Shown: one piece after another, positions 627 through 46,827 of the stretch
Numbering within the stretch: the stretch's first letter is position 1
Layout of the letters: each line of letters opens with the position of its first letter
Sequence record: PQ308734.1
Direction: 5' to 3' (one strand)
Source of the DNA: Klebsiella phage vB_Kp_Z1
DNA length: 46,827 nucleotides
The notes under the pieces: model-generated
What the model was told of the DNA's origin: nothing
Databases searched by the model: none
The model's input: the letters and a program-made list of their open reading frames with translations, nothing else
Translations under genes and position numbers: made by a program

Positions 627-975
627 CTAGGTAGCTTACTATCACTGACTAGGTAGCTACTGTTAGTTCACTAGGTAGCTAGCTATGGCTGACTAGGTAG
701 TTACTAGGTGGATTGATGTAAGCTTACTCAAGCTCTCTTAGTGCATCATTCGATGCACAATATAAGAAGAAGAATAAGATACTACAATAAGAATAGAGTA
801 CGCCTTGCCAACAGCTCTCATCAGCTACTTGCAACAGCCTACTCAGCCTACGTATAACCACTAGGTAGCTGCTTGTAGCTATGGTCGGCTGACTAGGTAG
901 CTTTAGTCAGTCTAGTGCACTAGATTAAGCTAATGTGAGCTACATCACTAAAATAGTGTTGACTAGGTAGCTCAC
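627..975. repeat. Cluster of CTAGGTAG(C/T)T motifs (at least 8 copies), often as TGACTAGGTAG
   Basis: Copies start near 627, 648, 669, 691, 700, 860, 891 and 962. The same motif lies inside the DTR (81-96) and near the right end (46545, 46621). By position this is analogous to the SRL/SRR short-repeat arrays next to the T7 terminal repeats. Confidence 0.5.
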
Positions 976-6871: not shown

Positions 6872-6882
6872 CAACAATTACA

Positions 6883-6915
6883 GGCAGCTACTTAAGTGGC
6901 TGCCTTTTCTTTTTA
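6883..6915 (+). terminator. Rho-independent terminator after the RNAP gene block (counterpart of the T7 early terminator TE)
   Basis: GGCAGC-(10-nt loop)-GCTGCC hairpin at 6883-6903, followed by TTTTCTTTTTAT. Confidence 0.6.
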
Positions 6916-7179: not shown

Positions 7180-7202
7180 ATCAGGCGCTACAATAGGGGG
7201 AG
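7180..7202 (+). promoter_or_regulatory. Phage-RNAP promoter-like 23-mer (divergent copy) inside the origin-like region
   Basis: AGGCGCTACAATAGGGGGAG matches the core CTACAATAGG of the consensus ATTAGGCACTACAATAGGAGAAG. Confidence 0.45.
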
Positions 7203-7206
7203 CCCA

Positions 7207-7253
7207 GTAAGCTATAATAGTAAGCTATAGTAAGCTATAGTAAGCCCTGTAAG
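7207..7253. repeat. Tandem AGTAAGCTAT iterons (3 full copies plus partials)
   Basis: GTAAGCTATAATAGTAAGCTATAGTAAGCTATAGTAAGCC, followed by an AT-rich palindrome TCTCTCTTTATAGAGAGA at 7266-7284. A related TAGTAAGCTAT motif recurs at 39320-39340. Confidence 0.5.
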
Positions 7254-7306: not shown

Positions 7307-7346
7307 AGCCCTCTTGAGTGTAGTAGCTCAGGAGGGCTTTATTTTG
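7307..7346 (+). terminator. Rho-independent terminator
   Basis: AGCCCTCTTGAG-(8-nt loop)-CTCAGGAGGGCT hairpin, then TTTATTTTG. Confidence 0.55.
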
Positions 7347-7367: not shown

Positions 7368-7390
7368 CTTAGGCACTCCAATAGATAACT
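7368..7390 (+). promoter_or_regulatory. Variant phage-promoter-like sequence (CTTAGGCACTCCAATAGATAACT)
   Basis: 17 of 23 positions match the consensus. Key core positions deviate (ACTAC becomes ACTCC, and AGG becomes AGA), so it may be weak or non-functional. Confidence 0.3.
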
Positions 7391-7557: not shown

Positions 7558-7700
7558 TGAGGTACGTTATTAAGCAGCAACCTGATGGTCTTTGGTATGT
7601 AAAGGATGAGTATCGTAATAAGGTACTAGTATGGGATGCAAGCAGGGAATACTGTGAAGGCTTCTTAGCAGGTGTTGCAGCTGTTGGAGGTGATTGCTAA
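7557..7700 (+). CDS. Small hypothetical protein (47 aa)
   Basis: Translationally coupled ORF between 7408-7557 and the primase start. Confidence 0.4.
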   Translation: MRYVIKQQPDGLWYVKDEYRNKVLVWDASREYCEGFLAGVAAVGGDC

Positions 7701-8883
7701 TGGCTATTGTTATGAACCTACCTTGCCCTGCCTGCCAGAAGAATGGCGCAGACAAGAATGGTAAGTACCTTATGGTGTTTGAGGATGGCGGTAAGCTATG
7801 TATCCATACTCACAACCACGATAACCGTGAGCGCTACTATGAGCCACCTGATGGCAAAGACCCTGTGTTTGACCGTGAGATTGATGGTAAGGTTCAGTAT
7901 TCTCCTGAGCAGTTCCGCAAGCTGGAATCAGATGGCAAGCTGAGTGATTCTTTTACCCGTCATCTTGCTATGTCTGGCATGAGGATGAAAGACCGCTATG
8001 AGATTCTCACTGATGATGAGCGCACAGCTCTGGAGAATGAGTGGCGCATGGACATGGAGTGGTTTGAAGGGCTTTCCTTTAAGTCACTAGCTGACCGTGG
8101 CATACATGGGCTAATCGCCAAGCTATATAATGTGCGAGTAGGTCATGATGAGTCTGGTAAAGTTGTCCGTCATTACTACCCAACTTATGACAGCCAGCTA
8201 AACCTGATTGGCGCTAAGTGTCGAACGTTGCCTAAGGAATTTATGTTCGGGCATCTTGGTCGTCGCTTTGGTGACACTGCACTGTTTGGTATCCACACCC
8301 AGCAAGCTGTACTTGATAGCGGTACTTTCAAGAAAGGTAAGATGGGTAAGCTGCTGGTAGTTGGCGGTGAGTGTGATGCTATGGCAGCTCAGCAGATGCT
8401 GGTTAAGAGTCTTAATAAGCTTGAGCAGTTCAATGGCCTGAAGTCACTTGATGGCTTGCGCCTGGCTCATGTGTGGTCGCCAACTAAAGGGGAGACAGCG
8501 CTAGAGGAGATTGTAGCTAACCGTGAATACCTCAATCAGTTTGAGGAGATTGTATGGGGCTTTGATAACGACGATGTAGGCAACAAGCTTAACCTAGACT
8601 GCTCCCGCTTGTTCAGGCAGAAGTCTAAGTTCTTTAACTACCCAGCTGGATGCAAGGATGCTAATGATTGCTTGCTTAAAGGCAGGGAGAAGGAGTTCAT
8701 GGATTCGTGGTGGCAACCAGCAGAGGCTAGAGTTAAGGGCAAGCTGAGGGAAGCTGGTCACTACGCTAAGCGAGCTAAGCAAGCTGTAGAGATGGGCTTG
8801 TCATACTTCTGTGAAGCTCTCAACATGATTACCTTTGGTATTCGCCTGCGTTACTTGTCTGTGTGGGGTGCTGGTACTGGCGT
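7700..8883 (+). CDS. Primase-helicase, exon 1 (zinc-ribbon plus TOPRIM primase domain, reading into the first half of the helicase Walker A)
   Basis: CPACQ..C.H.H zinc-ribbon motif, then TOPRIM-like GGECDAMAA and FDNDDVGN. The reading frame stops right after SVWGAGTGV, which is half of a P-loop. ATG 7700 lies inside the track ORF 7694-8893. Confidence 0.8.
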
Positions 8884-9659
8884 TAACTTATAGCGCCGTT
8901 AGTCAGGAATGGCTAACGTAAACTGTGTGAATTCGGGGGAAGACTAGACCAGTTAATCCCGAGCCAGAAGACACCTACTAATGGAGGTGTTTATGTTGAA
9001 GAAGCTGATTAAAGGTTATGAGAATTATTGTGTTCGTGAAGATGGTGAAGTATTCAATGTTCGAACAGGAAGGCGGTTAATGCCTGATGTAAGTAACAGA
9101 GGGTACTGGAGGATTACAGTTTGCAAAGATAATAAGCCTAAGAAATTCACTATTCATAGGTTAGTTGCTGAACTGTTTATCCCAAATCCTAACGGATATG
9201 ACACTGTTAATCATATTAATGGTGATAAGTCTGATAACTCAATTGATAACCTTGAATGGATGAGTCAAGAGCAGAACCAAGAGCATGCAAAGCTTACTGG
9301 TCTGTGCCCTAAAGGTGAGCTAAACGGTATGAGTAAGTACAGTGAGCAGTTGATACACAGAGTATGTGAGCTGATCCAATCAGGTAAGGTTCGCAATGAG
9401 GTGTTAGCTGCAACAGGTATTACTAAGTCATCATTTGATGACATTCGACGCAGGAAGACTTGGCGGCACGTGAGCCAAGATTACTGCTGGTAATTAACCG
9501 TGTCTTCTGGTGTAACGACTATTCCGTAAGGAAGTACACTCAAGCGAGTGGAAGCGCACAGCACCCAGAACGGGTGATGATATAGTCTGGTCTGCATGGG
9601 GACATGCAGCAGTTCATAAGAGAACGGGGTGCAACTAGCGACTGCACTCGAACACAACG
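8884..9659 (+). other. Group I intron (776 nt) interrupting the primase-helicase gene inside its Walker A motif
   Basis: P1 is formed by exon GGCGU (8879-8883) and the internal guide GCGCC (8893-8897), with a U-G wobble at the splice site. P-like GAATTCGGGGGAAG and Q-like AATCCCGAGCC precede the ORF. R-like GTGTAACGACTA and S-like GATGATATAGTCT lie 3' of the ORF, followed by a CTGCATG-GGGA-CATGCAG hairpin (GNRA loop). Terminal G 9659 can act as omega-G. The predicted splice restores GAGTGVGKTEITTQHITSL, a good match to the T7 gp4 helicase motif H1. Confidence 0.7.
8993..9493 (+). CDS. Intron-encoded HNH homing endonuclease (NUMOD4-like N-terminus, HNH core, C-terminal HTH)
   Basis: GYENYCVREDGEVFNV matches the NUMOD4 pattern. 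HRLVAELF...VNHINGDKSDNSIDNLEWMSQEQN is an HNH motif. The ATG at 8993 follows GGAGG. The track ORF is 8981-9493. Confidence 0.8.
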   Translation: MLKKLIKGYENYCVREDGEVFNVRTGRRLMPDVSNRGYWRITVCKDNKPKKFTIHRLVAELFIPNPNGYDTVNHINGDKSDNSIDNLEWMSQEQNQEHAKLTGLCPKGELNGMSKYSEQLIHRVCELIQSGKVRNEVLAATGITKSSFDDIRRRKTWRHVSQDYCW

Positions 9660-10488
9660 AGGTAAGACTGAGATTACTACTCAGCATATTACTAGCCTTA
9701 TCAAGCAAGGTAAGCCAGTGGTAGCTATTTACCTTGAGAACAGTCCAGAAGAAGTCCTCAAGATGGTGGCAAGCCAGATGGCTAACAAGGACTTTATGAG
9801 TCCACCACTAGGTGAAGATGATGAGTATGATGCATCGAGGGATTACACCCAAGAGGAGTTAGACGCTACAATAGATGAACTAGTAGCAACTGGATTGCTT
9901 ATCATACCTGACCTTGAAGGTAGCAAGGATGTCAACGTAATCATGGAAGTCCTAGAAGATGCATTAGCATTAGGCTACCAGTATTATGTTATCGACAACC
10001 TGACAGCCTTTGAGCACTACGTAGATGGTAAGGTTCAAGTAGGTGTTGCTGCTATTGACGAGACTATGAAGCGCATAGGTACGTTTAAGGACGAGCATGA
10101 CGTTAACATTATGCTGCTCACTCACTTAAGCAGACCAGAGAAAGGTCGTGACCCCCACGAGCTTGGTGGTGAAGTCTATATCACTGACTTACGTGGTGCA
10201 GGCTCTATCAGCTTTTGGGCTAATGGTGTATGGGGCATCGAGCGTAACACTCAGGCTGAGGCTATTAGCGACAAGTGTACTACACTGCTGCGTAACCTTA
10301 AGTCTCGTGGCGTTGGTCACAAGGTTGGCTCAACAGTTGTGCTCCGCAAGGACATTACTACTGGTGAGTTTGAGTACCTTGAAGGTGTTCATGAGCTGCC
10401 GCAGGTTGGCAGGAAGAAGAAGGAGAGTAAGCGCGATGCGCAAGCTCAACGGTTTATTGAAGATGCAGAAACTGACGGAGAGTTCTGA
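9660..10488 (+). CDS. Primase-helicase, exon 2 (DnaB-family helicase domain with an acidic C-terminal tail ending in Phe)
   Basis: GKTEITTQ completes the Walker A. YYVIDNLTAFEH (H2 / Walker B), IMLLTHLSRPEKG (H3) and LRGAGSISFWANGVWGIERN (H4) follow. The protein ends in ...EDAETDGEF, as in T7 gp4. The track ORF 9604-10488 is in the same frame. Confidence 0.8.
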
Positions 10489-11447: not shown

Positions 11448-13988
11448 ATGGAACACTTTCCGTCAATGTTTGCCAATAAAGCTGACCGCCCCTCTGGTAA
11501 GGGGCGCTTTCTTGTTGGTGACTTAGAGGGTGTGGGGCTTGTCAGGGCGATTCGTAAGCCGTCTGACATTCATGTCATCACCCTGCAAGATTACTTTAGC
11601 GGTGACTACTGGATTTTCTTCGATCCTATTGAGAAGCGAATCAACCCTAGCGAGCTGCAAATGGAAGGGGAGCAGGATGGCTACATTGAGGATGGTGTTC
11701 GTATGCTCATGGAGTCAGAAGCTTTCTGCTTCCAGAACGGGGTAGGCTTTGACTTGCATGTGTTTGAGAAATGCTTCCCGTGGTTCAGGTATAACTACTG
11801 TGAGTCACGAGCAGCTCGCCCACATGCTGACATCTTCCCGTTTAAGTTTATGGATACCATGCTGGTTAGCCAGCTGACTTATCCAGACCGCCCATTGCCA
11901 CCACAAGCTTACGCCATCGGCGCAGGTAATACTGGGCCGCATAGTATTGCAGCTCATGGTATCCGCATGGGTCGCTACAAGCCTGACCATGAAGACTGGT
12001 CTACTCTTACTGATGCAATGATTCACCGTAACGTGGAAGACGTTGCTATTGGTACTGATATGCTTAAGTGGCTCATGGAAGGTGATTGGGCTGAGCAGAA
12101 AGCTCGTGGCCTTAATAAGACCACTGGCTGTGGCATCGAGACTGCTTATCAGATGGAGCAGCAAGTGGCTCTCATGATTAGCCGTCAGGAGCAGCGGGGG
12201 TTCCGCTTTGATATGGCTCAGGCTTACAAAGACTACTGCGCCATTGACAAGGAGATGGAAGATACAGCAGCTGCTGTTGACCCACTCATACCACTGAGGC
12301 TTGTCACTAAGCCTTACAAGTTTGCTGACCTTAAGTCAAGGTATGATGCAGCTGTCAAGGCTGGGTTCACTGAGGCAGAGCTTAAGCCTGTCTTTAATGG
12401 CATCAATCAGACCATGAAAGCTATGGGTGATGAAGCTCGCATGGGTGACAAGGCTACTATGTGGTCTTTGACAACCAAGAACGGTGACTACAGCAAGCGT
12501 TTGCAAGGTTACTTCCCTGAGATGCGTGGCAACATAAATGACACGCATGACCCTCTTGTAGCTGGTGCATTCACTCCAATTAGCTTTGAGCATATTGGCT
12601 TGGGTAATCTTGACTACATTAAAGAGAAGGTGCTGTATCCACTTGGCTGGCGTGGTGTTAACTTGTCTGACTCTGAGCAAGAGTGGTATGACGAGCATGG
12701 CACAACACGTTATCCGTGGGCTGGTAAGATTGATGATGACTCGCTTGAGCTATGGAAGAAGAAACAGGAAGTACCAGAGTGGGCGCAGCAGGTTGTTAAC
12801 TACTACATCCTACGCTCGCGCCGCTCAGTTATCCTGAACCGAGGCGACCTTGACCACTTCCTTGAGAAAGGTCAGTGGCCTAAGCAGAAGAATGGGCGTC
12901 ATGAATGTCGTGGCTTGCTGGCAGTAGCTTACTGCAAAGAGTATGACATGACGGCTATGGAATACTTTGCTAAGTTCCGTGAGTGGCCTACATCTGAGGA
13001 TGAGGACTGGCGTGTACCAGCAGCAGCTTTCAGCATAGGAACCAATACCTTCCGTATGCGTCATCGCTTTGTGGTTAACATACCTGCTCGTGGGTTGTGG
13101 CCTCTGCGTCACCTGTTCATTGCATCTAAGGGTAAACTTATCTTAGGCTGTGATGGGGCTGGCCTTGAGCTACGTATGCTCAGTCACTTTATGAATGACC
13201 CTGAGTATCAAGACATCATACTTACAGGTGACATCCACACACATAACCAGCTTAAAGCAGGCCTACCTACAAGGGACATGGCGAAAACTTTCATATACGC
13301 CTTTCTCTACGGGTCAGGTATTGATGGGCTTGCCCGACTTGCTGGCATTAGCTTTAGTGAGATGGAGCAGTGTATTGCTCGCTTCAAAGCAGAGCTGCCT
13401 GCACTTGCTAAGCTCATTGAGCGTGTAGAAACTGCTGGTCGTAAGTTTGGCTACCTACAAGCTATTGATGGTCGCTGGGGCCGTATTCGCCGTAAGAATG
13501 GCAAGCCACTGCTGCACACTGCACTTAACGTATTGCTTCAGATGACTGGCTCTCTGGTTATGAAGTATGGTGAGTGCATCGCTGAGACTCAGATGATTGA
13601 GGAAGGGGTTGCATTAGATGATAAAGGCTATCCAGCTTTCGTGGCTAACGTACACGATGAAGTACAGATGGAAGTCCCTGAAGATGAAGTTGATGTTATG
13701 GACTACACGTTGCCATATACACTTGATGGATTCGAGAATGAGAAGAAAGCTATCAAAGCGGTCTTTGATGTTGAGGAGAAGCGAGCACACACTGATGACA
13801 GTGGGCGTAAGTGGTCAGCAGCTATCAAGGTTTCTGCTGCTGATGGTACTATCCATTGTCGCAGGTACTATCATCGAGCTGGTAACATCCTTATGGATGC
13901 TTTCGAAGCTGCTGGTGTTAAGTTCAACATGAGATGCCCACTTGCTGGTGAATATAAGATAGGCCGTAACTGGCATGATACTCACTAG
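11448..13988 (+). CDS. Family A DNA polymerase (846 aa, SP6-size) with a 3'-5' exonuclease domain
   Basis: Exo I FLVGDLEGVG; motif A LGCDGAGLELRML; motif B RDMAKTFIYAFLYGSG; motif C VANVHDEVQMEV. The ORF is continuous with no intron. Confidence 0.95.
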   Translation: MEHFPSMFANKADRPSGKGRFLVGDLEGVGLVRAIRKPSDIHVITLQDYFSGDYWIFFDPIEKRINPSELQMEGEQDGYIEDGVRMLMESEAFCFQNGVGFDLHVFEKCFPWFRYNYCESRAARPHADIFPFKFMDTMLVSQLTYPDRPLPPQAYAIGAGNTGPHSIAAHGIRMGRYKPDHEDWSTLTDAMIHRNVEDVAIGTDMLKWLMEGDWAEQKARGLNKTTGCGIETAYQMEQQVALMISRQEQRGFRFDMAQAYKDYCAIDKEMEDTAAAVDPLIPLRLVTKPYKFADLKSRYDAAVKAGFTEAELKPVFNGINQTMKAMGDEARMGDKATMWSLTTKNGDYSKRLQGYFPEMRGNINDTHDPLVAGAFTPISFEHIGLGNLDYIKEKVLYPLGWRGVNLSDSEQEWYDEHGTTRYPWAGKIDDDSLELWKKKQEVPEWAQQVVNYYILRSRRSVILNRGDLDHFLEKGQWPKQKNGRHECRGLLAVAYCKEYDMTAMEYFAKFREWPTSEDEDWRVPAAAFSIGTNTFRMRHRFVVNIPARGLWPLRHLFIASKGKLILGCDGAGLELRMLSHFMNDPEYQDIILTGDIHTHNQLKAGLPTRDMAKTFIYAFLYGSGIDGLARLAGISFSEMEQCIARFKAELPALAKLIERVETAGRKFGYLQAIDGRWGRIRRKNGKPLLHTALNVLLQMTGSLVMKYGECIAETQMIEEGVALDDKGYPAFVANVHDEVQMEVPEDEVDVMDYTLPYTLDGFENEKKAIKAVFDVEEKRAHTDDSGRKWSAAIKVSAADGTIHCRRYYHRAGNILMDAFEAAGVKFNMRCPLAGEYKIGRNWHDTH

Positions 13989-13989
13989 T

Positions 13990-14012
13990 ATTAAGCACTA
14001 CAATAGGTATAA
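13990..14012 (+). promoter_or_regulatory. Phage RNAP promoter (ATTAAGCACTACAATAGGTATAA)
   Basis: 19 of 23 positions match the consensus, and it lies 25 nt upstream of gene 14037. Confidence 0.6.
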
Positions 14013-14845: not shown

Positions 14846-14868
14846 ATTAGGCACTACAATAGGAATAG
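14846..14868 (+). promoter_or_regulatory. Phage RNAP promoter (ATTAGGCACTACAATAGGAATAG)
   Basis: 21 of 23 positions match. The predicted +1 G is at 14862, and the transcript begins GGAAUAGCUGAG, reading straight into the tRNA-like element. Confidence 0.65.
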
Positions 14869-14946
14869 CTGAGTAGACTCAATTGGTAGAGCGGTACACC
14901 AGAAATGGCAGTATCGGTTGCTGGTTCAAGTCCAGCCTCAGCGACC
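14867..14946 (+). ncRNA. tRNA-like element lacking a canonical anticodon arm (tRNA pseudogene or structured decoy RNA)
   Basis: 6-bp acceptor stem GCUGAG/CUCAGC. U8-A9. A D-arm with conserved A14, A15, G18, G19 and A21 (ACUC-AAUUGGUA-GAGC). A perfect T-arm GCUGG-UUCAAGU-CCAGC, discriminator A, and CC. In the anticodon position there is a GGUAC-[A-CCA-GAAA-UGG-CA]-GUAUC hairpin with a GNRA tetraloop. I found no 5-bp stem with a 7-nt loop by hand. Confidence 0.35.
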
Positions 14947-14947
14947 T

Positions 14948-14970
14948 ATTAAGCACTACAATAGATATAG
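14948..14970 (+). promoter_or_regulatory. Phage RNAP promoter (ATTAAGCACTACAATAGATATAG)
   Basis: 19 of 23 positions match. It lies 38 nt upstream of gene 15008. Confidence 0.6.
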
Positions 14971-16964: not shown

Positions 16965-17362
16965 AGAAAACTACTAAAGCCGATTTAGTTTGGATTAAGA
17001 AAGAGCTGCTGGAGAAGCAGCGTTACCGTTGCCCTATTACTGGTAGAGATTTACGGACAATGAAGCCAGCTAACTTGTGTGTTGACCACTGTCACACATC
17101 AGGTGTTATTAGAGCTGTGCTGCCAAAGGGTATCAATGGACTTGAAGGAAAGATTAAAACACTGATGCAACGGTTTGGTGGCTTTGAGGCCACTGATGTA
17201 GTAGGACAGGCCAAGGCCTTATATGCACTAGCAGACTTCATCCTCTTACACAGAGTGCCACAGACACCTTATCTGCATCATACACACCTGTCACCAGCAG
17301 AGCAGAGGGCTAAGCGTAATGCTCAGGCTCGTAAGCGGTATGCTTTGAAGAAGAAGGAGTAA
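16955..17362 (+). CDS. Endonuclease VII-type Holliday-junction resolvase (135 aa from ATG 16955)
   Basis: CPITGRDL...VDHCHTSGVIRAVLPKGINGLEG matches the T4 gp49 endo VII signature (C-x2-G ... DH-H ... RG-L ... N ... G). The track ORF starts at 16922, overlapping the exonuclease. Confidence 0.75.
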   Translation: MELKKTTKADLVWIKKELLEKQRYRCPITGRDLRTMKPANLCVDHCHTSGVIRAVLPKGINGLEGKIKTLMQRFGGFEATDVVGQAKALYALADFILLHRVPQTPYLHHTHLSPAEQRAKRNAQARKRYALKKKE

Positions 17363-18486
17363 TGATGACTAAGATGACTGAGAAGCAGCTAAAGGAATGC
17401 CTTGTAGCTAAGATGACAACCAGTGAGATTGCCAAGAAGTTTGGACTGTCTCATAGGGCTGTTCAGGTTCGCAAGGCAGCTTTAGCCAAGAAAGGCTACA
17501 GCCCTGAGCATGACATGGTGCATCAGGTTCCTGAGGGCTTCTTGCTTAAGGGTCAGTCAACCTTATATGGTAAGGATGGGGATGTTAAGCTGACTTGGGT
17601 TAAGTCATCTATTGACCGTGATAAGCAGCTTGAGCTACTACGCGAGTTCATTGCTGGCATGGGTGATAACTTGCCCCGTGAGCTTCCAGTTACCTGTGGC
17701 GGTGTTGGTAGTGATGATCTGTTAAATCAGTTCACTATTACTGACTACCACTTAGGTATGCTGGCATGGGATGAGGAGTCTGGTGACAATTGGGATATGA
17801 AGATTGCAACTAACCTTATCCTCAAGTGGTTCCAAGAAGCTATCCGCTGTAGCCCTATGGCTAAGACAGCTGTTCTGGCTCAGCTTGGAGACTTCTTGCA
17901 TTGGGATGGCTTGGATGCAGTTACTCCAAGTAGCGGTCATGTGCTTGATGCTGACACACGCTTCCAGAAGCTGGCTCGTGCTGCCATCTACATCACAAGA
18001 GCTGTGATTAAGATGCTGCTTGAGAAGCATGAGAAAGTTCATGTTGTCTTTGCAGAAGGTAATCATGATATGGCTAGCTCAATCTGGATGCGTGAGTTCC
18101 TTACAGTGATGTATGAGAATGAGCCTCGTATTACTATTGACCAAAGTCCAGACCCTTATTATTGCTATGTGCATGGTGATACTACATTGTTCTACCATCA
18201 TGGGCATAAGAAGAAGATGGAGCAGTTGTCTGATGTGTTCGCTGCTAAGTTCCGTAGCGAGTGGGGTGCTAGTAAATACTCCTATGCTCACGTAGGTCAC
18301 TTGCATCATCACAAGGTGATTGAAAGCCCACTGATGAAGGTAGAGCAGCATCAGACTCTTGCAGCTAAGGATGCTTATGCAAGCCGTGGTGGTTGGCTGA
18401 GCAAGCGAGCTGCTACTGTCATCACTTACCATAAGAAGTTTGGGGAAGTATGTAGGGCTACCATCACACCTGAGATGGTGAGTTAG
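17362..18486 (+). CDS. Calcineurin-like metallophosphoesterase with an N-terminal HTH (374 aa)
   Basis: N-terminal TTSEIAKKFGLSHRAVQVRKAAL (a sigma-70 region 4 / LuxR-like HTH). Phosphoesterase motifs VVFAEGNHD (GNH[DE]), HGDT, HHGHKKK and GHLHHH. Confidence 0.6.
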   Translation: MMTKMTEKQLKECLVAKMTTSEIAKKFGLSHRAVQVRKAALAKKGYSPEHDMVHQVPEGFLLKGQSTLYGKDGDVKLTWVKSSIDRDKQLELLREFIAGMGDNLPRELPVTCGGVGSDDLLNQFTITDYHLGMLAWDEESGDNWDMKIATNLILKWFQEAIRCSPMAKTAVLAQLGDFLHWDGLDAVTPSSGHVLDADTRFQKLARAAIYITRAVIKMLLEKHEKVHVVFAEGNHDMASSIWMREFLTVMYENEPRITIDQSPDPYYCYVHGDTTLFYHHGHKKKMEQLSDVFAAKFRSEWGASKYSYAHVGHLHHHKVIESPLMKVEQHQTLAAKDAYASRGGWLSKRAATVITYHKKFGEVCRATITPEMVS

Positions 18487-18504
18487 AAACTACAATAGGA
18501 CTAA
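18482..18504 (+). promoter_or_regulatory. Phage RNAP promoter (GTTAGAAACTACAATAGGACTAA)
   Basis: 17 of 23 positions match, with the core ACTACAATAGGA intact. It overlaps the last codons of gene 17362 and lies 22 nt before gene 18526. Confidence 0.5.
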
Positions 18505-24138: not shown

Positions 24139-24161
24139 ATTAGGCACTACAATAGGAGAAG
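24139..24161 (+). promoter_or_regulatory. Phage RNAP promoter, exact consensus (ATTAGGCACTACAATAGGAGAAG); the major late promoter for the capsid gene
   Basis: Identical 23-mer to 39261-39283. The downstream leader has an AGCU-GAAAGU-AGCU hairpin and AAGGAGA before the ATG. Confidence 0.7.
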
Positions 24162-24221
24162 CTGAAAGTAGCTTTGTGGGCTAGTGCCTACCTAATAAAT
24201 TTATAAGGAGACAACTAACAT

Positions 24222-25340
24222 ATGTCTAGCGTTAACAATCTGGTAAACCCTGCTGTCTCAGTCTCTGGTGAGGTAGACACACTACTCATTGAGAAGTTTG
24301 ATGGTCAGGTTAAGTTGGCCTATAAAGAGATGGTCAACATGATGCGCTACTTCGACCTGAAGGAAGTGGTAGGCACTAACTCCGTCTCTAACAAATACAT
24401 GGGTACTACCCAAGTTCAGGGCTTAGCTCCCGGTGCTGATGTAAAAGGCACACAAGTTGAGTTCGACAAAAACCAGCTGGTAATCGACACTGTTGTTATT
24501 GCACGTAACAACGTAGGTATTCTGGCTGATGTTCAGGATGACATCAATACCAAAGGTAAACTGGCAGTAGACCAAGTAGAACAGCTGGGTATGATGGAAG
24601 ACCGTATGCTTATCCAGCAGATTGCTTATGGTGCTATCAAGAACACCAGTGCTAAGCGTACCAAACCTCGTGTACGTGGTCACGGCTTCTCTGTTGATGT
24701 TAAAGTCAAGGCAGAGACTATGGAGTACCCTAACGCTGTTCAGGCTTCTCTTGAGGCTGTTCTGGAAGCTATGGTCAAGCAGAATGTACCTATCCAGAAG
24801 ATTGCAGCAATTATGGATTGGACATACTTCAATACCCTGCGTGATGCAGAGCGTATTGTAAATGCCACCTACACCACTGCCTCTGGTACTACCGTCAATG
24901 GCTTTGTACTGAAGTCTTACAACCTGCCAATCATTCCTACTAACCAGATGCCTAATAAGGCTCGTGACCAACAGGACTTGGATGGCAATACTTCAGCACA
25001 CCACTTGCTGTCTAACGCCAACAACGGCTATCGTTATGACGTGATCTCTGATAAGGGTAATGATGACAATATGGAGAACGTAGTAGCTGTCCTGTTCGGC
25101 TCTGAGGGCCTGATGGTTGGTCGTTCGATCTCACTGCAGGGTAAGATTTGGATGAACGATAATAACAAAACTTGGTACATTGACTCTTGGATGTCTGAGG
25201 GTGCTATTCCTGACCGTTGGGAGCACCTTGGCATTGTGCGTGTGGTAAAAGATGAAAAAGCCTCTGAGGACACTGCAGTCCGTAAGCGTGCTAACCGTAA
25301 GGTTATTCCAGTGTCTAATACCCCACTGACTATTGCTTAA
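24222..25340 (+). CDS. Major capsid protein (gp10-like, 372 aa)
   Basis: Consensus promoter upstream, strong terminator downstream, strong SD, strongly biased codon usage, and a size and position matching T7 gp10. Confidence 0.9.
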   Translation: MSSVNNLVNPAVSVSGEVDTLLIEKFDGQVKLAYKEMVNMMRYFDLKEVVGTNSVSNKYMGTTQVQGLAPGADVKGTQVEFDKNQLVIDTVVIARNNVGILADVQDDINTKGKLAVDQVEQLGMMEDRMLIQQIAYGAIKNTSAKRTKPRVRGHGFSVDVKVKAETMEYPNAVQASLEAVLEAMVKQNVPIQKIAAIMDWTYFNTLRDAERIVNATYTTASGTTVNGFVLKSYNLPIIPTNQMPNKARDQQDLDGNTSAHHLLSNANNGYRYDVISDKGNDDNMENVVAVLFGSEGLMVGRSISLQGKIWMNDNNKTWYIDSWMSEGAIPDRWEHLGIVRVVKDEKASEDTAVRKRANRKVIPVSNTPLTIA

Positions 25341-25356
25341 TTATAAGTGCCATTTT

Positions 25357-25388
25357 GCCCCGTCCTCTTGGATGGGGCTTATTTTTGT
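25357..25388 (+). terminator. Rho-independent terminator after the capsid gene (T-phi analogue)
   Basis: GCCCCGTCC-(5-nt loop)-GGATGGGGC hairpin, then TTATTTTTG. Confidence 0.7.
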
Positions 25389-34200: not shown

Positions 34201-35065
34201 GGACAACATTGGTTGGCTGCAAAGCACTATGTCATTCCTTCGACCGATGCAGGGTATGATTGATGAGCTATCTGCTCGTAGCATCATGACCAATATAGTT
34301 GACCTGTCTAAGAATGGGATGTTCACTGGCAAAGTTCGCAAGAGCTTCCTTGAGCTTGGTAAAATGTCCGAGGATTCACTTGATGCCAGTATGACTCACA
34401 TCAAGTCTCAGATGGGTTCTGGTAAGGACATCTTTGAAGCTATCCGCACTCTTGACCCTAAGCTGCGTGATGAGCTTGGTACAGCTATTCGCACCATCCA
34501 CACATTCAACATCGGCCGCTCTTACTACGGTGAGCTTCCAGCATTTACTAACCAATCGCTTGGTAAGATTTTCATGAAGCTTCAGTCATTCGCACTGGTA
34601 GCTTATGAGAAGTCCATTCAGCGTGGTTTCCGTAATGACCAAGCCGGACTAGTCGCAGCAACTGCTTGGTCAGCTGGGTTGGCCTACCTGTGGTCTGAGG
34701 TAGATGTTCGTGCTCAGTCACTCAAGCAGCCTGAGGCTAAGCGTGATGAGTACGTTCGTAAGCGCCTTGAGGATGAGATGGCTTATACAGTGGCAGGCCG
34801 TATGTCCCAGCTGGCTGTGCTGAGTACACTTGCTCAGGTTATGAACGTAGCTAACCCGTATCAGGATAGCGTACTCAAACCGTTTGGTGAGTATCGCGGT
34901 GTTGCAGCAGGTGGCGCTATCAGCAAGGTTGGTCAGGCAGCAGCTGCTGGCACACGGCTTGCAACAGACCAGTCAGTAGACCCTGATGCTGATATGTATA
35001 AAGTCTATGGAGCTGTACCGCTATTGAACACTGCAATAGGTATGGCAATCCTCAACACATTATAG
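31202..35065 (+). CDS. Internal virion / ejection protein (gp16-like, 1287 aa), with no recognisable N-terminal SLT motif
   Basis: Size close to T7 gp16 (1318 aa). The N-terminus lacks the TES..GLMQ transglycosylase signature; that signature is found instead in the separate gene 43250. Confidence 0.8.
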   Translation: MADTSVPQEQSFGDLFGAAARNNWILQQKQQSEDLMTYGTPVEGYKPSYEDVSKITTDYKLTDEQSKVLSGSMSPEELQYRAKVFKDNNDRKKTLDNAGWKGVAAEVLSYAADPVVLPTYALKTPMVVGQIATKLGFQFSKTAVTGAIERAVGAGIVGGATGLGQEAVLSMYDPNRDVNDVVLAGISGVIGGAAFSSLADGGAAIFERLTAKRQLGRAMDEAVEAFDWDNSINLVNSADHELTGASMGRIENTQYGKYFDMLQGEIPDELARKRVLTEGDAINKLIDDLTPTAEARMSRGQRMEAEAQIKATSHDIELIAQRLAEVEATVPVGSGKILSKARQDRAAELSSLRSQLDNLRAQVVTKQTELAPHTTGEYAEAVGDISRLKQGIIPDRLKERYLDLITPEDPAPAFNEAVTGLPPVKEEQVVLPEQAAQEAAKPVEQPDTSIGAAEVKDSIIFPDTEGKEISDTYANVLGGLQKIGEKIPVTKVAGSTALYTRVMAGTKDNTLRGIASLVFNDPHGIKGAPQSAIAFSDTMRTSIMPKAFFIENTAKEQYLKQLGVNPLFQAGKYNEELIKFDRNIMLRMTELTDTVIGDADDAITRAAKARAQAYAESLKLMKRYGVRGFENVGERASYTPVTFGKNDITSALDQFGEDAVREVLARGYMTGKIPLSAKSARLVADNTLERYYRKSGKVAAVKPTESISGKIAEAVNELREGGVSDSEIRTVINMLQDKAHDESISARAMQSLHPNLAAETADGLRFVDLVDSSTAGVDKYVRDAAAQAAFAKYGMRSRRQVEDTITEAFKRHRQQLTELTDNYNRAKERLSKIDRSKALPSIVSELEKTIKDYERLGDINKYRKFLDSYEEDFFNGVKVTFGEPVEQANSIAYAASSTGKLVNLMMLGFSGLAQVADLGVTIARSGVGATLRNLPTTLYHGVRSLLPSARYFETNNQLSNMAEIFGTVSHQDYLFGHKMLKGAEYGDAVIGQVSKADKVLDNIGWLQSTMSFLRPMQGMIDELSARSIMTNIVDLSKNGMFTGKVRKSFLELGKMSEDSLDASMTHIKSQMGSGKDIFEAIRTLDPKLRDELGTAIRTIHTFNIGRSYYGELPAFTNQSLGKIFMKLQSFALVAYEKSIQRGFRNDQAGLVAATAWSAGLAYLWSEVDVRAQSLKQPEAKRDEYVRKRLEDEMAYTVAGRMSQLAVLSTLAQVMNVANPYQDSVLKPFGEYRGVAAGGAISKVGQAAAAGTRLATDQSVDPDADMYKVYGAVPLLNTAIGMAILNTL

Positions 35066-36235: not shown

Positions 36236-36542
36236 TAAGAATTCAGCCACAGAGGATGATGTTGGTCTTATCCATAAGCTTGTTACTAAGGTCATTACTA
36301 AGAAGCTTGAGAAGTGGTTAGAGCTTATTGATAAAGGTGGTGATGTAGACTTGGTTGTAGATATGAAACAGCTTAAGTCTGCCATTGACTGGTGTGACAA
36401 GAATGGCATCGTATGTGCTGACCCAGCTGAACAAAGCGATAATGAACTTGGTGATAAGCTCTCTGAGATTCGCAAGGCTCAACATGCTCGTGGTGTAGTT
36501 GTTCCATTCAAAGAAGATGATGAGGAGGGCTATGGAACATGA
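36213..36542 (+). CDS. Terminase small subunit (gp18-like, 109 aa, GTG start)
   Basis: AGGAGG before GTG 36213, and an ATGA overlap with the large terminase start. Size and position fit T7 gp18. Confidence 0.5.
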   Translation: MASVSKSNKNSATEDDVGLIHKLVTKVITKKLEKWLELIDKGGDVDLVVDMKQLKSAIDWCDKNGIVCADPAEQSDNELGDKLSEIRKAQHARGVVVPFKEDDEEGYGT

Positions 36543-37078
36543 GGCGTGTTAACAGGAACGACAAGAAGGCACAGTTAGAAATGTGGGAGGAGCTTGAAGC
36601 GATACAGAAAGCTTTCCCCTTCACTGTGCAAGGCTTGTGGCTGTTTGCCTCACTTGTGCTTGAGAAGACTATCGTAGGCTCTCCTCACCTTAATCGCACA
36701 CAGAAAGATATTCTGAGCTTCCTGCTTAACGGTGGGAAGTATATAGGCATACAGGCAAGCCGTGGCATGACCAAGACAGTTATGGCAGCTATCCTCTGCT
36801 GCTTCTGCCTTATTCATATGCCGCACTACCGTATCATTGTATTCTCACAGAACGGCAAGCGAGCTAAGGAGATTGCAGGGTGGGTTGTAAAAATCTTCTA
36901 TGCTATCGACATCCTTGAGGTATTGCAGCCAGATACCTATGCTGGCGACCGTTCATCTATTGAAGCTTTTGACATTCATTGGTGTTTCCGTGGTGCTGAT
37001 AAGTCACCATCAGTTACTTGCTACTCTATTGAGTCGGGTGCTCAGGGTGCTCGTGCTGACCTTATACTCGCAGACGAT
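36539..37078 (+). CDS. Terminase large subunit, exon 1 (ATPase domain through Walker B)
   Basis: GIQASRGMTKT (Walker A-like) and LILADD (Walker B) align with T7 gp19 TSRQIGKST and IYIEDC. The ORF stops 3 codons after the Walker B motif, at 37087. Confidence 0.85.
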
Positions 37079-37928
37079 AAACTTTAACAATGTCGTCTAT
37101 AAACCATTTTAATTCGGTGGAACTCAGCCCTAACATGGGAAGACAATACCGAGCTAGGGCTAACGCCCGAGTGTAACGACTAGCCGAAAGGCGTAGGGCC
37201 AAGTGGCTCGAAACTTATGGGTGCAGTTATATGCACAAGATATAGTCTACTCTGCATAGAGATATGCAGCATCTCTTAAGGAGGTCTAACATGACCAAGC
37301 GTAATAGTGTTAAAGATACATCAGCATTTCGTACCAGAAAGTATGATGTAGGAAGTATCATCAAGACTAAATATGGTGATGTAAAGATACTAGAAATAAT
37401 TAAAGGTTATACAGATAGTGCTGGTAAGAGGTTTCGCACTAGGTGTGTTTGTATCTTCCTAGCCACTGGTTATGTAACTAATTGCCAACTATCTAACCTT
37501 ACTGTCGGTAAGGTGAAGGATATGAGGATGCCAACAGTGTATGGCGTTGGTTACATAGGGTCTGACATCAAGATAACAGCTCGCGGAACTTATGTTCGTA
37601 GGTTATATGACCTATGGGCTAACATGCTTAAGCGTTGTTATTTTAAGTCTGGTACAAGAAATGATGAAATTTACAAGGATGTAAAAGTTGATACAAGATG
37701 GCACAGTTTCACAAACTTTATGAACACTATACAAGACGTAGAGGGGTTTGAGCTGTTTGAAGCAGGGCTTGATGTTGCACTTGATAAAGATATAAAGGTC
37801 AAGGGTAATAAAGTCTACTCAAGAGATACCTGCATGTTTGTATCAACAAGGGATAACACTATTGCAGCACTTAATAAGAGGTGGCATGGAAAGTAACGAA
37901 GCCATGTTAATAAAGGATTGAAAGTTTG
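37079..37928 (+). other. Group I intron (about 850 nt) splitting the large terminase gene, related to the primase-helicase intron
   Basis: P1 is formed by exon GACGAU (37073-37078) and the guide GUCGUC (37092-37097), with a U-G wobble at the splice site. P-like AATTCGGTGGAAC, Q-like AATACCGAGC, R-like GTGTAACGACTAG and S-like AAGATATAGTCTAC follow, then a CTGCATA-GAGA-TATGCAG hairpin. This is the same core as intron 1. The ORF sits 3' of the core. The 3' splice site is predicted after G 37928 (G 37916 is the alternative), which rejoins ADD|QNSRTAQSREWLLEQ with the same D-to-W spacing as T7 gp19. Confidence 0.65.
37291..37896 (+). CDS. Intron-encoded homing-endonuclease-like / DNA-binding protein (201 aa from ATG 37291)
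   Basis: AAGGAGG precedes the ATG. The motif YGVGYIG...RRLYDLWANMLKRCY...VKVDTRWHSFTNFMNTI resembles the W..M..RC / W..F.NF DNA-binding module of phage homing endonucleases. No HNH or GIY-YIG catalytic motif is evident. Confidence 0.55.
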   Translation: MTKRNSVKDTSAFRTRKYDVGSIIKTKYGDVKILEIIKGYTDSAGKRFRTRCVCIFLATGYVTNCQLSNLTVGKVKDMRMPTVYGVGYIGSDIKITARGTYVRRLYDLWANMLKRCYFKSGTRNDEIYKDVKVDTRWHSFTNFMNTIQDVEGFELFEAGLDVALDKDIKVKGNKVYSRDTCMFVSTRDNTIAALNKRWHGK

Positions 37929-39227
37929 CAAAACTCCCGTACAGCTCAGAGTCGTGAGTGGTTGCTTGAGCAGTCATTAGAGTTTGAGTCAATCAACCAG
38001 TACGGTCGTATCATCTACCTAGGCACACCTCAGGGTGTTGAGTCTATCTATAACACACTCCCAGCTCGTGGTTACGTTATGCGTATCTGGCCTGGCCGCT
38101 ATCCAACAGCTGAGCAGCTTGAGTTTTATGGAAAGGCTCTGGCTCCCTTATTCCGTAAGGATATTGAAGCTGACCCAAGCTTGCAAAGTGGCGGTGGGCT
38201 TGATGGTACTATGGGCAAGCCAACAACACCTGCTATGTATGATGAGGAATTGTTGCAAGAGAAGGAGATGAGGCAAGGTCTTGCTAAGTTCATGTTGCAG
38301 TTCATGGTTCATACTGGTATGTCTGACCGTGACCGCTTCAAGCTTAAGCTAGAGAATCTGGTACTCATGAACTTCAATGCCATGCAAGGTGCTGTTATGC
38401 CTGTGTGGAACAGCGACCAGCGTAGCATGTGGCAAGCTGCCCCTCGCTTTGGTACACGTCCACAAGACAGATTTTACTTTGCCATGCAGCAGCCATACAT
38501 CATGCGTGACTTCGACCTAACTGTTATGTTCATTGACCCAGCTGGAGGTGGCTCTCGCTCACAGGATGAGATGGGTTATGCTATAACTAAGCTGTTAGGT
38601 ACTTATGTCTACATATATGATGTTGATGGTGTCAAGGGTGGTTATGAGCAATCAGAGCTGATGAAGCTTGTGCAAGCTGCTAAGGATGCTAAGGTCAACG
38701 TTTGCTATGTGGAAAAGAACTATGGTAACGGTGCTCACTTTGCAATGCTCAAGCCACTGTTTGAGAAGTTCTATCCGGAGTGTAGGCTAGAGGAGATTAA
38801 CTCCTCAGGTCAAAAGGAACTACGTATCATTGATACACTGGAACCACTGCTAGGCCAGCATCGCTTGGTAGTCTCACAGACAGCTGTTATGAAGGATTAC
38901 AACAGCATTCAGAAGTACCCAGCAGAGGTCAAGATGACTTACAGCTGCTTCTACCAACTTGCTCACATAACGAGCGACCGTGGGGCGCTTAGGCATGATG
39001 ACCGCTTAGACGCGCTGGCTGGGGCTGTGGCGCAGATTGTCAACTACATCGACTATGACCAAGAGAAAGCCGAGAAAGAGCGGCAGGCAGAGGCTGACAA
39101 GCATTTCTTTGAGGTTATGGCTAACCCCAATGGATTCGTTCACACGATGATGCATGGTGGTGATTTTATGAGCTATGTTGAGCAACAAAACACCGGAGCC
39201 AACGCCCTCAAGAAATACTTTAATTAA
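37929..39227 (+). CDS. Terminase large subunit, exon 2 (nuclease / C-terminal domain)
   Basis: REWLLEQSLEFESINQYGRIIYLGTPQG aligns with T7 gp19 DSWLAIQPVISSGRRSKIIITTTPNG. The track ORF 37926-39227 starts at a TTG that is unlikely to be real. Confidence 0.85.
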   Translation, partial: QNSRTAQSREWLLEQSLEFESINQYGRIIYLGTPQGVESIYNTLPARGYVMRIWPGRYPTAEQLEFYGKALAPLFRKDIEADPSLQSGGGLDGTMGKPTTPAMYDEELLQEKEMRQGLAKFMLQFMVHTGMSDRDRFKLKLENLVLMNFNAMQGAVMPVWNSDQRSMWQAAPRFGTRPQDRFYFAMQQPYIMRDFDLTVMFIDPAGGGSRSQDEMGYAITKLLGTYVYIYDVDGVKGGYEQSELMKLVQAAKDAKVNVCYVEKNYGNGAHFAMLKPLFEKFYPECRLEEINSSGQKELRIIDTLEPLLGQHRLVVSQTAVMKDYNSIQKYPAEVKMTYSCFYQLAHITSDRGALRHDDRLDALAGAVAQIVNYIDYDQEKAEKERQAEADKHFFEVMANPNGFVHTMMHGGDFMSYVEQQNTGANALKKYFN

Positions 39228-39260: not shown

Positions 39261-39283
39261 ATTAGGCACTACAATAGGAGAAG
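39261..39283 (+). promoter_or_regulatory. Phage RNAP promoter, exact consensus (ATTAGGCACTACAATAGGAGAAG), for the tail-fibre gene
   Basis: Identical to the capsid promoter 24139-24161. Confidence 0.7.
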
Positions 39284-39289
39284 CTATAA

Positions 39290-39392
39290 GAAGAACAGTA
39301 AGTATACAGTAGCTATAGTAAGCTATTGTTAGCCCTAGTAGCTACTGTACTTCTTCCTTATTATTTCTTATATCTTATTATAGAGGAGCTAT
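39290..39392. repeat. Imperfect inverted repeat containing TAGTAAGCTAT motifs in the 5' leader of the fibre gene
   Basis: ACAGTAAGTATACAGTAGCTATAGTAAGCTATTGTTAGCCCTAGTAGCTACTGTACTTCTTCC. The arms CAGTAGCTA / TAGCTACTG pair, and the motif echoes the 7207-7253 iterons. Confidence 0.4.
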
Positions 39393-42300
39393 ATGACTAC
39401 ATATAAGCTTAAGCAAGTTAAAACATCAGAGAGCTTTGTAGGGCTTTCTGATACCCCAGCAACCCTTGCTGGAAGTGGTGGTAAAATCCTTAAGGTTAAC
39501 TCATCTGGTACAGGTATTATACTATCTGATGAGAGTAAGTTAGCTCTCTATGAGGATGGTGTATTCCAACCACCTGTTGATGGAATTAACGTAGTTGGTA
39601 TTAGTGTAGATAAAGAGGAGAATGGCATCGCTACAATTAGCGGTGTAGGTCTTCCACTAGCTAACTTACAAGTTGGTGAAGTCATTGCAATTGACCCCGT
39701 CTCAAAGAGAGCTAAGGGTACTGGCATCGTATCTAACGAGAAAGGTGTTTCTGTTGGTGCTGATGGTGTTATTGTAGGACAGCACCGTATAAGCTCCATT
39801 GGTGAGGCTGTAGGTGTTACTAACGTAGCTACTGGTGGAACTACGGTTTCCATTGGTATGCCACTCTCTAGCACTGGTCAGGCTAAGCCAACTTACATCA
39901 GCTTTACCTCAGCACTTACTGAGGTTGTTAGAAATGCTGATGTCACTAACACTATCAAAGACCCTGAGTGGTATGTAGGTCAGCCACAGCTTGATGAAGT
40001 CCTGTTTGGAATCACAATCAAGGATGTTGTATACCCTCAGTCTAATGTGTACTTATATGGCTTTGGGGATGGCAAGGAGCTGTTTAAGGTTCTCCTTGGT
40101 GACTTTGTTGCAGGTACTAATACCTTTGTACTAAGTACACCTGTGGTTATTAAGAATGTTAACTCTATCCAAGTTGCCCTGCTATCTGATTATGGTTCTG
40201 TTTATGTTAAGGGTGATTCAAGTGGAGTACCCGCATACTCAGCTAAGCTCCGCACCTTTGAATACAAACAGCTTATATCTGAACTAGGTATCAAGCAAGC
40301 TGTAGGTGGTACGCCAATAAGTGCAAATAACTTGGTGTTCCCTTCTGCTTCTGTATTTGTTGATAATGTAAGTGGTGATGTAGTAGTTGATACAAGCTTT
40401 GGGGTTGACGATGAGACTACATCTATCCAAGGTGTTGGTAGCCTTAAGTTCAAAGGCGCTACAGTTAAGTCTACAACAGCTTCTAATGGAGAGGTTACAG
40501 CTGAGGTTACAATACCTCCACCAGAAGGTATCACTATCAACAGTGAAGGTTCTACTTTAACTAATGTTGGTGAGATTAACTTACTGCCACCACTTAAGGT
40601 GTCTAGTGACAACACTGGCTCTGCTCGTATTGCCATTGATCATAATGCCTACCAGCAGATGCTACCGCCATCTCATCTGGCTTATTTGACAGAAGAAGTT
40701 AGCTTAGTTGGAAAGATTGGCGACCAGCGTAATCTTCACACTGGAGCAATCTGGTTTGATGACATCATTACACAGAGTGGTGACATCTACACAAGTCGTG
40801 ATGAGAAGGTTTACGGCATCCAAGAGGTTGATGGTCTTGACCCAAACATCACAGGTGGTAATGACTTCCTTATAGCTTACAAGCTTTGTTTTGATGGTGT
40901 TGCACCAGCTGATGGCATTGTACGTATTGCACTTGCTGACCCCACCACAGGCGACTACTTGGTTGATGCCAATGGGTTTGCAATGGTTGCACAGCGTCAG
41001 TATGTAGCTGGTGAAGTCCTTGGTGAGCTACTTGTAGTTGGTGTTGTTAGGGCAACTGCCATCACACCATTCAAGTGTCTGTGCCTTGATAACTTCCAAG
41101 CTAACCTGTTGACTATCAAAGACCGCGGTGAATCTACATCTGGCCTTATGATTCAGTGTATGCTGACTAATGGTAAGACTGGTGAGGCTATCAAGCAGTT
41201 TGAGCTTGATACAGGTTCAAATATAGCTGTTGATAGCCACTACTTTGGTAACATCATTGACAGCCTTGCATATGCATCAAGTCAGAGCATGCCAGCAACA
41301 ACAATACCTGCACTAACAGGTATCAGAGAGGGTGACGGCTGGTTCTTAAACAACACAACTAGTGTTACCCTGTCATCTGGCAGTGGGCTATTTAAGGTAT
41401 CTAGTAGTGGTCAGAATACTGCATACTTCTCATTAGGTAAGATTTTCAATGCTGATAAAACTCAGCTTCTTCGAAACAAGGGGCTGTCAGTAATCAGTAC
41501 ACTAGGGACACCTGATTGTGGGTTCTTGATTAAACTTGCATATTGGACAGGTGCGCCTGATGAGTGCCCAAGTAATATCTTTACAGGGTCACTTAATGAT
41601 AACCCTGTTCTGGCGCAAGGTTGGAACCTGCTAAGTAGCAGTATCTCTTGCCCTGAGGATGTTGTTAATGAGTTCAACACACTTACTGGAAGTTTTGTTG
41701 TACCACCAACAGCAAATAACTTTGCAATCCTAATCTATCCAGTGTCTCAGCAAAATCCTATTAATCTTACTATTAGTAAGTTTGAGATTGGTGCTGTTGA
41801 CCCCTTCACTGGTTACTATGTTAAAGATAGCAAGCTTGTTAGTGAGCAGCATCTTTATAAGGACATAAACTACAACCAGTTGTATATGAACTCAGAGGGC
41901 TACTCTGCACTTCGATATACCATTAACAGCACACCTGTTACTGGTCTACCTATGCCAGTTGGTCATGTTGGTAAAGGCTCAGCTGGTGTTACTATTGATA
42001 GGTCTATTAACCATGTTAGTGGTTTTAATGGCGAAGGTGCTATCAAGTTTAATACTGATGGCAATGTGACAATCAGCACACAGCTGCGTGTTTATGCAGG
42101 TGAATCTGTTCCAGCTGGGACTATGTCTTCAGTAACCTTCTGGTATTCTACTGTAAGCTCAACTGGTGTATTCACTAAGATAGCTGACTCAGAGACTACC
42201 TTCAATGTTACTGGTGGTGACAAGGTTCCCCTGTCAATCCTCATGAAGAAGTTTAAGCTGAGTGTTAAGGCAGGGGATAGAATTGCTTTGTTTGCTAAAG

Positions 42301-46700: not shown

Positions 46701-46827
46701 CAGCTTCAGCTTTCCCCCATCGGGGGTGGCTGGCTGGCACCTCTTAGGCCGCAGGCAGTTAGAGGGGGTGGGTAGGCTGGCTAGGTAGCTGGCAGCAGCT
46801 GGCTGTGGCTAGCGTAAGTCATTGATG
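46701..46827. repeat. Right direct terminal repeat (127 bp)
   Basis: Exact copy of 1-127 at the far right end of the window. Confidence 0.9.

Follow-up and report, generated by a model that had tools for sequence, protein, structure and literature searches.

Promoters of related phages

The genus Gajwadongvirus (Autographiviridae) includes the phages ECBP5, PP99 and Pseudomonas phage MR4. The authors of the Klebsiella phage vB_Kp_Z1 genome (PQ308734.1) placed it in the same genus, in a paper that does not contain the word "promoter" (PMC13469291). Phage-specific promoters have been proposed for two other members. In the 2020 PP99 paper, 10 such promoters are predicted and a consensus logo is drawn (PMC6989608). 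In Table 2 of a 2024 review, TAGGCACTACAATA is given as the promoter of the 877-aa ECBP5 RNA polymerase (RNAP; YP_009146377.1), with patent WO 2020/243026 as the source, and alternative RNAPs of this kind are called not yet well characterised (PMC11617373). The PhageProm pipeline found no promoters in ECBP5. Transcription start-site or in vitro data for members of the genus were not found in the searchable open literature.

The promoters of T7, T3 and K11 consist of an AT-rich upstream part, a specificity region, a melting region and a G at +1. These phages have degenerate (class II) and consensus (class III) promoters, a terminator after the capsid gene and tandem promoters after the RNAP gene. 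The SP6 promoter (ATTTAGGTGACACTATAGAAG) is a contiguous block of about 18 bp plus an initial G. In the SP6 genome, promoters at 6118 and 6287 lie after the RNAP gene, the one at 22413 is a perfect copy ahead of the capsid gene, and another (37773) comes after the terminase gene. The repeated motif described here for vB_Kp_Z1 has this architecture and an equivalent layout. It is very probably the promoter of the phage's own T7/SP6-type RNAP, is found throughout the genus and is the promoter already reported for ECBP5 and predicted for PP99.

Motif copies in the vB_Kp_Z1 genome

The window is the whole 46,827-nucleotide stretch of PQ308734.1, with a GC content of 45.62%. When repeated 18-mers are sought without reference to the motif (15 or more of 18 positions matching), the 23-mer motif ATTAGGCACTACAATAGGAGAAG is the top repeated element of the genome. 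There are 11 sites, nine strong and two weak (774 and 35023), and all are on the + strand, in the same direction as the genes (Table 1). With up to three mismatches, the 23-mer has three matches, compared with none expected (100 dinucleotide-preserving shuffles, all 0). The 9-mer core CTACAATAG occurs eight times, on the + strand only, compared with 0.69 expected, and no shuffle reached eight. Exact matches to the 14-mer given in the review for the ECBP5 RNAP lie at 14848, 24141 and 39263, within the copies at 14846, 24139 and 39261, and the other strong sites differ from it by one to three changes.

The sequence-only reading had described seven to eight copies. All eight sites that it listed (7180, 7368, 13990, 14846, 14948, 18482, 24139 and 39261) are present, and the two that it called perfect, at 24139 and 39261, are exact 23-mer matches. 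The repeat is real, but the count was too low: the strong site at 9858 and the weak site at 35023 had been missed. A partial match given for the early region at 776-800 also exists, but in a different register, at 774-796. The perfect copies had been said to precede the capsid and fibre genes. This agrees with the gene content, in which the major capsid gene is identified by a match to phrog_267 (2e-74) and ORF 39393-42914 encodes a 1173-aa protein with a C-terminus resembling tail fibre proteins.

The +1 position is taken as the G after CAATA, which is position 17 of the 23-mer; this register is set by homology with SP6 and T7. In this register, positions -15, -14, -13, -8 to -1 and +1 are invariant or nearly so among the sites. 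The two consensus copies have the predicted initial transcribed sequence GGAGAAG in common. The promoter stretch predicted as the substrate of the 877-aa RNAP is AATTAGGCACTACAATAGGAGAAG.

Table 1. Predicted promoters, RNAP gene and candidate terminators of vB_Kp_Z1. Mismatches to ATTAGGCACTACAATAGGAGAAG are from a Hamming scan; the SP6 column gives the syntenic SP6 promoter.
Feature	Coordinates	Strand	Predicted +1 G	Mismatches	SP6	Context
Weak variant ATAAGATACTACAATAAGAATAG	774-796	+				Non-coding early region; A at predicted +1; kept in 5 of 5 relatives
Single-subunit T7-type RNAP, 877 aa	3844-6477	+				Early region; enzyme predicted to read the motif
Strong intrinsic terminator	6882-6905	+				After RNAP operon; 10-bp stem, 6 GC pairs, tail TTTCTTTTTA
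First phage promoter ATCAGGCGCTACAATAGGGGGAG	7180-7202	+	7196	4	6118	3' of RNAP gene and early terminator
Hairpin and T-run	7307-7338	+				13-bp; between tandem promoters; kept in all relatives
Second promoter of tandem pair CTTAGGCACTCCAATAGATAACT	7368-7390	+	7384	7	6287	Small ORF at 7408 begins 24 nt downstream
Internal promoter GTTAGACGCTACAATAGATGAAC, strong	9858-9880	+	9874			Within helicase part of split primase/helicase gene
Promoter	13990-14012	+	14006	5		Begins 2 nt past DNA polymerase stop codon; ORF 14037 31 nt downstream
Near-consensus promoter	14846-14868	+	14862	2		tRNA-like element 5 nt past predicted +1
Promoter	14948-14970	+	14964	5		ORF 15008 44 nt downstream; conserved island in otherwise unalignable spacer
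Promoter	18482-18504	+	18498	6	17428	Overlaps last codons of ORF 17362-18486; polynucleotide kinase gene 28 nt downstream
Consensus ("class III"-like) promoter	24139-24161	+	24155	0	22413 (perfect; before SP6 capsid gene)	Ahead of major capsid gene 24222-25340
GC-rich hairpin and T-run	25357-25378	+				Directly after capsid gene; 9-bp stem, 7 GC pairs, tail TTATTTTTGT
Weak conserved site ATTGAACACTGCAATAGGTATGG	35023-35045	+				In 3' end of internal virion protein gene; tail-fibre adaptor gene 34 nt on
Consensus promoter	39261-39283	+	39277	0	37773	3' of large terminase gene; ORF 39393-42914 116 nt downstream

Placement of the sites and transcription landmarks

Although non-coding DNA makes up only about 13% of the genome, eight of the 11 sites are fully intergenic. 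Of the other three, two lie within genes and one overlaps a gene's last codons. At most sites, a start codon follows 24-146 nt after the predicted +1. All strong sites are 3' of the RNAP gene, and the first of them, at 7180, lies past the terminator at 6882. A whole-genome scan found no strong site upstream of the RNAP gene or in the early region. Copies that are co-oriented, mostly intergenic and, when strong, downstream of the RNAP gene are placed as T7-supergroup promoters are.

The hexamer TACAAT, which the motif contains, differs from the sigma-70 consensus TATAAT at one position, and a consensus scan flagged 13975-14004 (ATGATA-18-TACAAT) as promoter-like. The motif could accordingly be read as a host element in which TACAAT serves as the -10 box for the Klebsiella RNA polymerase. 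This is very improbable. No -35 element is conserved at a distance of 16-18 bp upstream of TACAAT, and the sequence upstream of about -17 varies both between sites and between genomes. Instead, a contiguous conserved block of 17-18 bp directly abuts TACAAT, as in promoters of single-subunit RNAPs. Sigma-70-like matches are not enriched over shuffles anywhere in the genome, the early region, where host promoters would be expected, has no strong motif site, and the motif varies across lineages in step with the specificity loop of the phage RNAP (see below). Some host RNAP activity at the sites may still occur, since TACAAT is a good sigma-70 -10 hexamer.

With the motif read as the promoter of the phage RNAP, the landmarks in Table 1 suggest the following order of transcription. 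The early region and the RNAP gene would be read by the host RNA polymerase up to the terminator at about 6882-6905, which probably ends early host transcription. The phage RNAP would then start at the G following CAATA at about 9-11 sites. Degenerate sites would drive the DNA-metabolism genes. The two consensus sites would drive the capsid gene and the tail and lysis genes after the terminase gene, with GGAGAAG as the initial transcript. The hairpin directly after the capsid gene is, by position and form, the analogue of the T7 T-phi terminator.

In the non-coding early region (620-990), (C/T)TGACTAGGTAGCT units are present at about 643, 689, 889 and 959. The unit at 959 makes up the best sigma-70-like promoter of the genome (TTGACT-17-TATAGT, 959-987). 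These units are probably the early promoters of the host RNAP.

The two weak sites are less certain. The site at 774, which lies upstream of the sigma-70-like promoter at 959-987, may be a left-end promoter by analogy with T7 phiOL. The role of the 35023 site as a promoter is uncertain, because coding constraint could account for its conservation. Given the A at +1 in the first and the coding location of the second, both may be non-functional.

An inverted repeat (TAGGCACTA/TAGTGCCTA) flanks the capsid promoter. It was dropped as a candidate structured element because folding of the capsid leader transcript (24155-24224) is no better than that of shuffles (z = -1.4).

Conservation within the genus

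The RNAP gene and capsid region of vB_Kp_Z1 are 99-100% identical to those of Klebsiella phages RCIP0089 and Roth32, 95-99.7% to RCIP0053, and 92-98% to ECBP5, PP99, MR4 and Vibrio phage JSF38. For the RNAP gene by itself, nucleotide identity is 92% to ECBP5 and PP99 and 99% to RCIP0089. By sequence similarity, the genome is that of a Gajwadongvirus, which agrees with its published placement.

A matrix built from the vB_Kp_Z1 sites was used to scan the genomes of PP99, ECBP5, MR4, RCIP0089, the more distant Edwardsiella phage DT115P1, and SP6. In each of the five relatives, the matrix finds 10-12 sites on the coding strand, with the motif at 9-11 syntenic positions in common with vB_Kp_Z1, and the number found in PP99 agrees with the published count of 10. 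The sites stand out as conserved islands from spacers that otherwise cannot be aligned. In the SP6 genome, nothing scores above 10.5 bits. The 30-mer at the capsid promoter and the 7368 promoter sequence are each identical in PP99, ECBP5, MR4 and RCIP0089. The 9858 site is kept at the orthologous place in all relatives, and the Edwardsiella phage has GACTACAATAGG at the place of the 774 site.

Differences between vB_Kp_Z1 and its Gajwadongvirus relatives are limited to individual degenerate sites and to spacers. Where vB_Kp_Z1 has GGAGAAGC after the terminase gene, the relatives have GGAGAAAGC. The 14846 and 14948 sites are conserved blocks within one spacer, and the DNA between and after them cannot be aligned among the genomes; in vB_Kp_Z1, a tRNA-like insert lies between the two promoters.

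Across 54 orthologous sites (30 distinct sequences), -13A, -7T, -5C, -4A, -3A, -2T, -1A and +1G are invariant. Positions -15T, -14T, -8C and -6A are almost invariant. There is no conservation between sites or between genomes upstream of about -17.

The 16-mer TAGGCACTACAATAGG was found in 33 stretches in IMG/VR. Only the contigs with Gajwadongvirus-like capsid genes, at four loci, are real relatives, and one of these is PP99 itself. The many single-match contigs are probably chance matches, as is suggested by roughly estimating how often a 16-mer would match by chance in so large a collection. For that reason, the IMG/VR scan with this 16-mer gives no evidence of a widespread promoter.

Comparison with SP6 and other T7-like promoters

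The earlier description of the architecture as SP6-like and closer to SP6 than to T7 is borne out. From -17 to +1, the motif is identical to the SP6 promoter at 12 of 18 positions, including TTAGG (-15 to -11), AC (-6 and -5) and ATAG (-3 to +1), compared with 10 of 18 for T7. Identity to K11 is 13 of 18. The motif differs from SP6 at -10 to -7 (CACT in vB_Kp_Z1, TGAC in SP6) and at -4 (A rather than T). These differences fall inside the specificity region, and no site in the genome is within six mismatches of the SP6 21-mer. On this comparison, the motif is too far from the SP6 consensus to count as an SP6 promoter proper. In comparison with T7, T3 and K11, position -7 is T rather than C and the melting region is AATA rather than TATA.

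Two further promoter sets, of Aeromonas phage Tola (ATTAAGGTTGCACAATAGA) and Pantoea phage Nufs112 (ATTAACCCTCACAATAGA), were found de novo. Both have the unusual CAATAG melting region, with A at -4, in common with vB_Kp_Z1. Their RNAPs are 66-68% identical to that of vB_Kp_Z1 and their promoters have the same syntenic placement. In contrast, positions -12 to -7 are unlike those of vB_Kp_Z1 in both phages, and the specificity-loop residues change in step.

Between -16 and -5, the Nufs112 promoter (for example, at 16163, 17140 and 25757) is identical to that of T3. Like T3 RNAP, the Nufs112 enzyme carries Asp where T7 has N748, yet it belongs to the SP6-like branch. On sequence, recognition of the T3 type appears to have been reached by convergence.

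Repeated intergenic elements in phages can also be binding sites of other phage proteins, replication or packaging signals, or RNA processing signals. For this motif, such a role in place of a promoter is hardly credible: it has no dyad symmetry, its orientation is strictly that of the genes, and it matches SP6 and K11 at the positions common to the T7 supergroup (ATTAGG..AC..ATAG). The sites are moreover placed like SP6 promoters and track the specificity-loop residues of the RNAP. A second, palindromic repeat family (GTCTAGTACACTAGAC) is present in the same spacers. The tandem pair after the RNAP gene is also similar to the primary origin of T7, in which promoters act as origin elements as well. 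These two points favour a non-promoter role.

RNA polymerase and specificity loop

The 877-aa RNAP aligns with T7 RNAP structures over residues 5-877 (phmmer, E=2e-115) and retains the HDSFGT motif. Its identity is 99% to the PP99 and ECBP5 RNAPs, 45-46% to SP6 RNAP (BLASTP and alignment) and 35% to T7 RNAP. In T7 RNAP, R746, N748, R756 and Q758 contact promoter bases. The equivalents of the first three were taken from a multiple alignment. The position of Q758 falls within a 3-residue deletion that shortens the specificity loop in both the 877-aa RNAP and SP6 RNAP.

At 746, 748 and 756, Gajwadongvirus RNAPs have Q/N/K, or Q/K/K in the Edwardsiella phage, and their promoters have T at -7 and G at -11. 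SP6 RNAP has R/R/K and its promoter has C at -7. In Tola, R/K/W is found with C at -7 and G at -11. In Nufs112, R/D/Q goes with C at -7 and, at -11 to -9, a T3-like CCC. The loop of the vB_Kp_Z1 enzyme thus differs from those of SP6 and T7 (R/N/R). Among the phages compared, Q at 746 and T at -7 occur only in this genus; position -7 is C in T7, T3, SP6, Tola and Nufs112.

In a survey of hundreds of mined RNAP-promoter pairs, R746 was found with C at -7 in 91%, and residue 748 was coupled to -11, where D goes with C and both N and K go with G (PMC11880802). All four lineages obey these rules wherever they apply. For example, Asn748 in vB_Kp_Z1 is found with G at -11, as predicted. Because the loop-promoter pairings follow the coupling rules, they support the promoter reading, the +1 register and a specificity unlike that of SP6 or T7.

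By analogy with T7, the AT-rich recognition loop would contact about -17 to -13 (ATTA), the specificity loop would contact -12 to -5 (GGCACTAC) in the major groove, and AATA (-4 to -1) would be melted. The distinctive T at -7 would be read by the Gln that replaces T7 Arg746, through a Gln-adenine contact, on an alignment in which the loop of this clade is three residues shorter than that of T7. It is possible, though less likely than not, that Gln746 with T:A at -7 is a rare loop solution that is fully orthogonal to T7, T3, K11 and SP6, in a pair that is biochemically uncharacterised beyond the patent-table entry and was missed by at least one current promoter-mining pipeline.

Novelty

The sequence-only reading had proposed a new promoter class that matched no described promoter. 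This is contradicted by the ECBP5 RNAP entry TAGGCACTACAATA (PMC11617373) and by the consensus predicted and drawn in the PP99 paper (PMC6989608). Novelty was said to be lost if the same 23-mer had already been described for a known phage, and it is lost because the promoter is already listed for ECBP5 and predicted for PP99. The motif set is a correct annotation of a known, genus-wide promoter and not a new class.

Several results would nevertheless fit a truly new class read by an RNAP of uncharacterised, orthogonal specificity. No genome site is within 6-7 mismatches of the SP6, T7 or T3 consensus. Gln746 with T at -7 lies outside the Arg-C pairing of most mined pairs, the ECBP5 promoters were missed by PhageProm, and a full-text search of the open literature for the string CACTACAATAGG returned no paper. 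On the other side are the core tabulated for ECBP5 from a 2020 patent application, the PP99 prediction of the same year and an architecture that is ordinary for T7 and SP6. A new class is therefore unlikely, and a known promoter of the genus is the preferred reading. Only the pairing of Gln746 with T at -7 is mildly novel.

The sites give a transcription map for vB_Kp_Z1, which is lacking in its published description, and the RNAP with its promoter could plausibly serve as an orthogonal expression module. As a discovery, this has little value because a company has already claimed the pair and the promoter had already been predicted in sister phages. As a natural exception to the near-universal Arg746/C(-7) rule, the Gln746/T(-7) pairing is of modest scientific interest.

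Other elements in the genome

The palindrome GTCTAGTACACTAGAC is present at seven loci (910, 6981, 7060, 7346, 10954, 14802 and 43219), with 16 strand matches compared with 0.55 expected. The copies lie between listed ORFs, often just upstream of a phage promoter. De novo searches found analogous GTCT...AGAC palindromes in Tola (TGTCTCTTATAGGAGACA), Nufs112 (TGTCCACTGTAGGAGACA) and SP6 (GTCTAACATGTTGGACA, about 10 copies). From their sequences, these look like a conserved class of element in SP6-like phages.

The decamer ATAGTAAGCT is present in about three copies just 3' of the 7180 promoter (7206-7245) and in about 8-10 copies in RCIP0089. Related AGTAGCTAT/AGTAAGCT units follow the 39261 promoter (39295-39348), and AGTAAGCT occurs 16 times compared with four expected. 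By a speculative analogy, the decamers, tandem promoters, AT-rich stretch and hairpin after the RNAP gene recall the T7 primary replication origin.

The tRNA-like element (14867-14944, + strand) sits exactly between promoters 14846 and 14948. Against the Rfam tRNA model (gathering score 29), a local search gives it 35.3 bits. A whole-genome Rfam search at the gathering threshold and ARAGORN found nothing, including at 14867-14944. The anticodon-loop region is 13 nt long (ACCAGAAAUGGCA) and could extend a stem under a GAAA loop. No relative has the same spacer, which makes the element a vB_Kp_Z1-specific insert. It probably corresponds to the "tRNA-Ser" reported with the genome from tRNAscan-SE (PMC13469291), and it is doubtful as a functional tRNA.

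Bases 1-127 are repeated exactly at 46701-46827. Since assemblers commonly use k-mers of this length, 127, the repeat probably reflects circularisation overlap rather than a true terminal repeat. If so, the unique length would be 46,700 bp and the ends of the record would differ from the physical ends.

Two HNH homing-endonuclease ORFs interrupt essential genes. The ORF at 8981-9493 splits the primase/helicase gene into 7694-8893 (Toprim) and 9604-10488 (DnaB-like), and the ORF at 37264-37896 splits the large terminase gene into 36539-37087 and 37926-39227. Both genes are intact in PP99, ECBP5 and MR4 and both are split in RCIP0089. The terminase gene is also split in the Edwardsiella phage.

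The tailspike (44420-46366) contains all three Pfam domains of the K1 capsule-specific polysaccharide lyase, which agrees with the K1-specific host range reported for vB_Kp_Z1 (PMC13469291).
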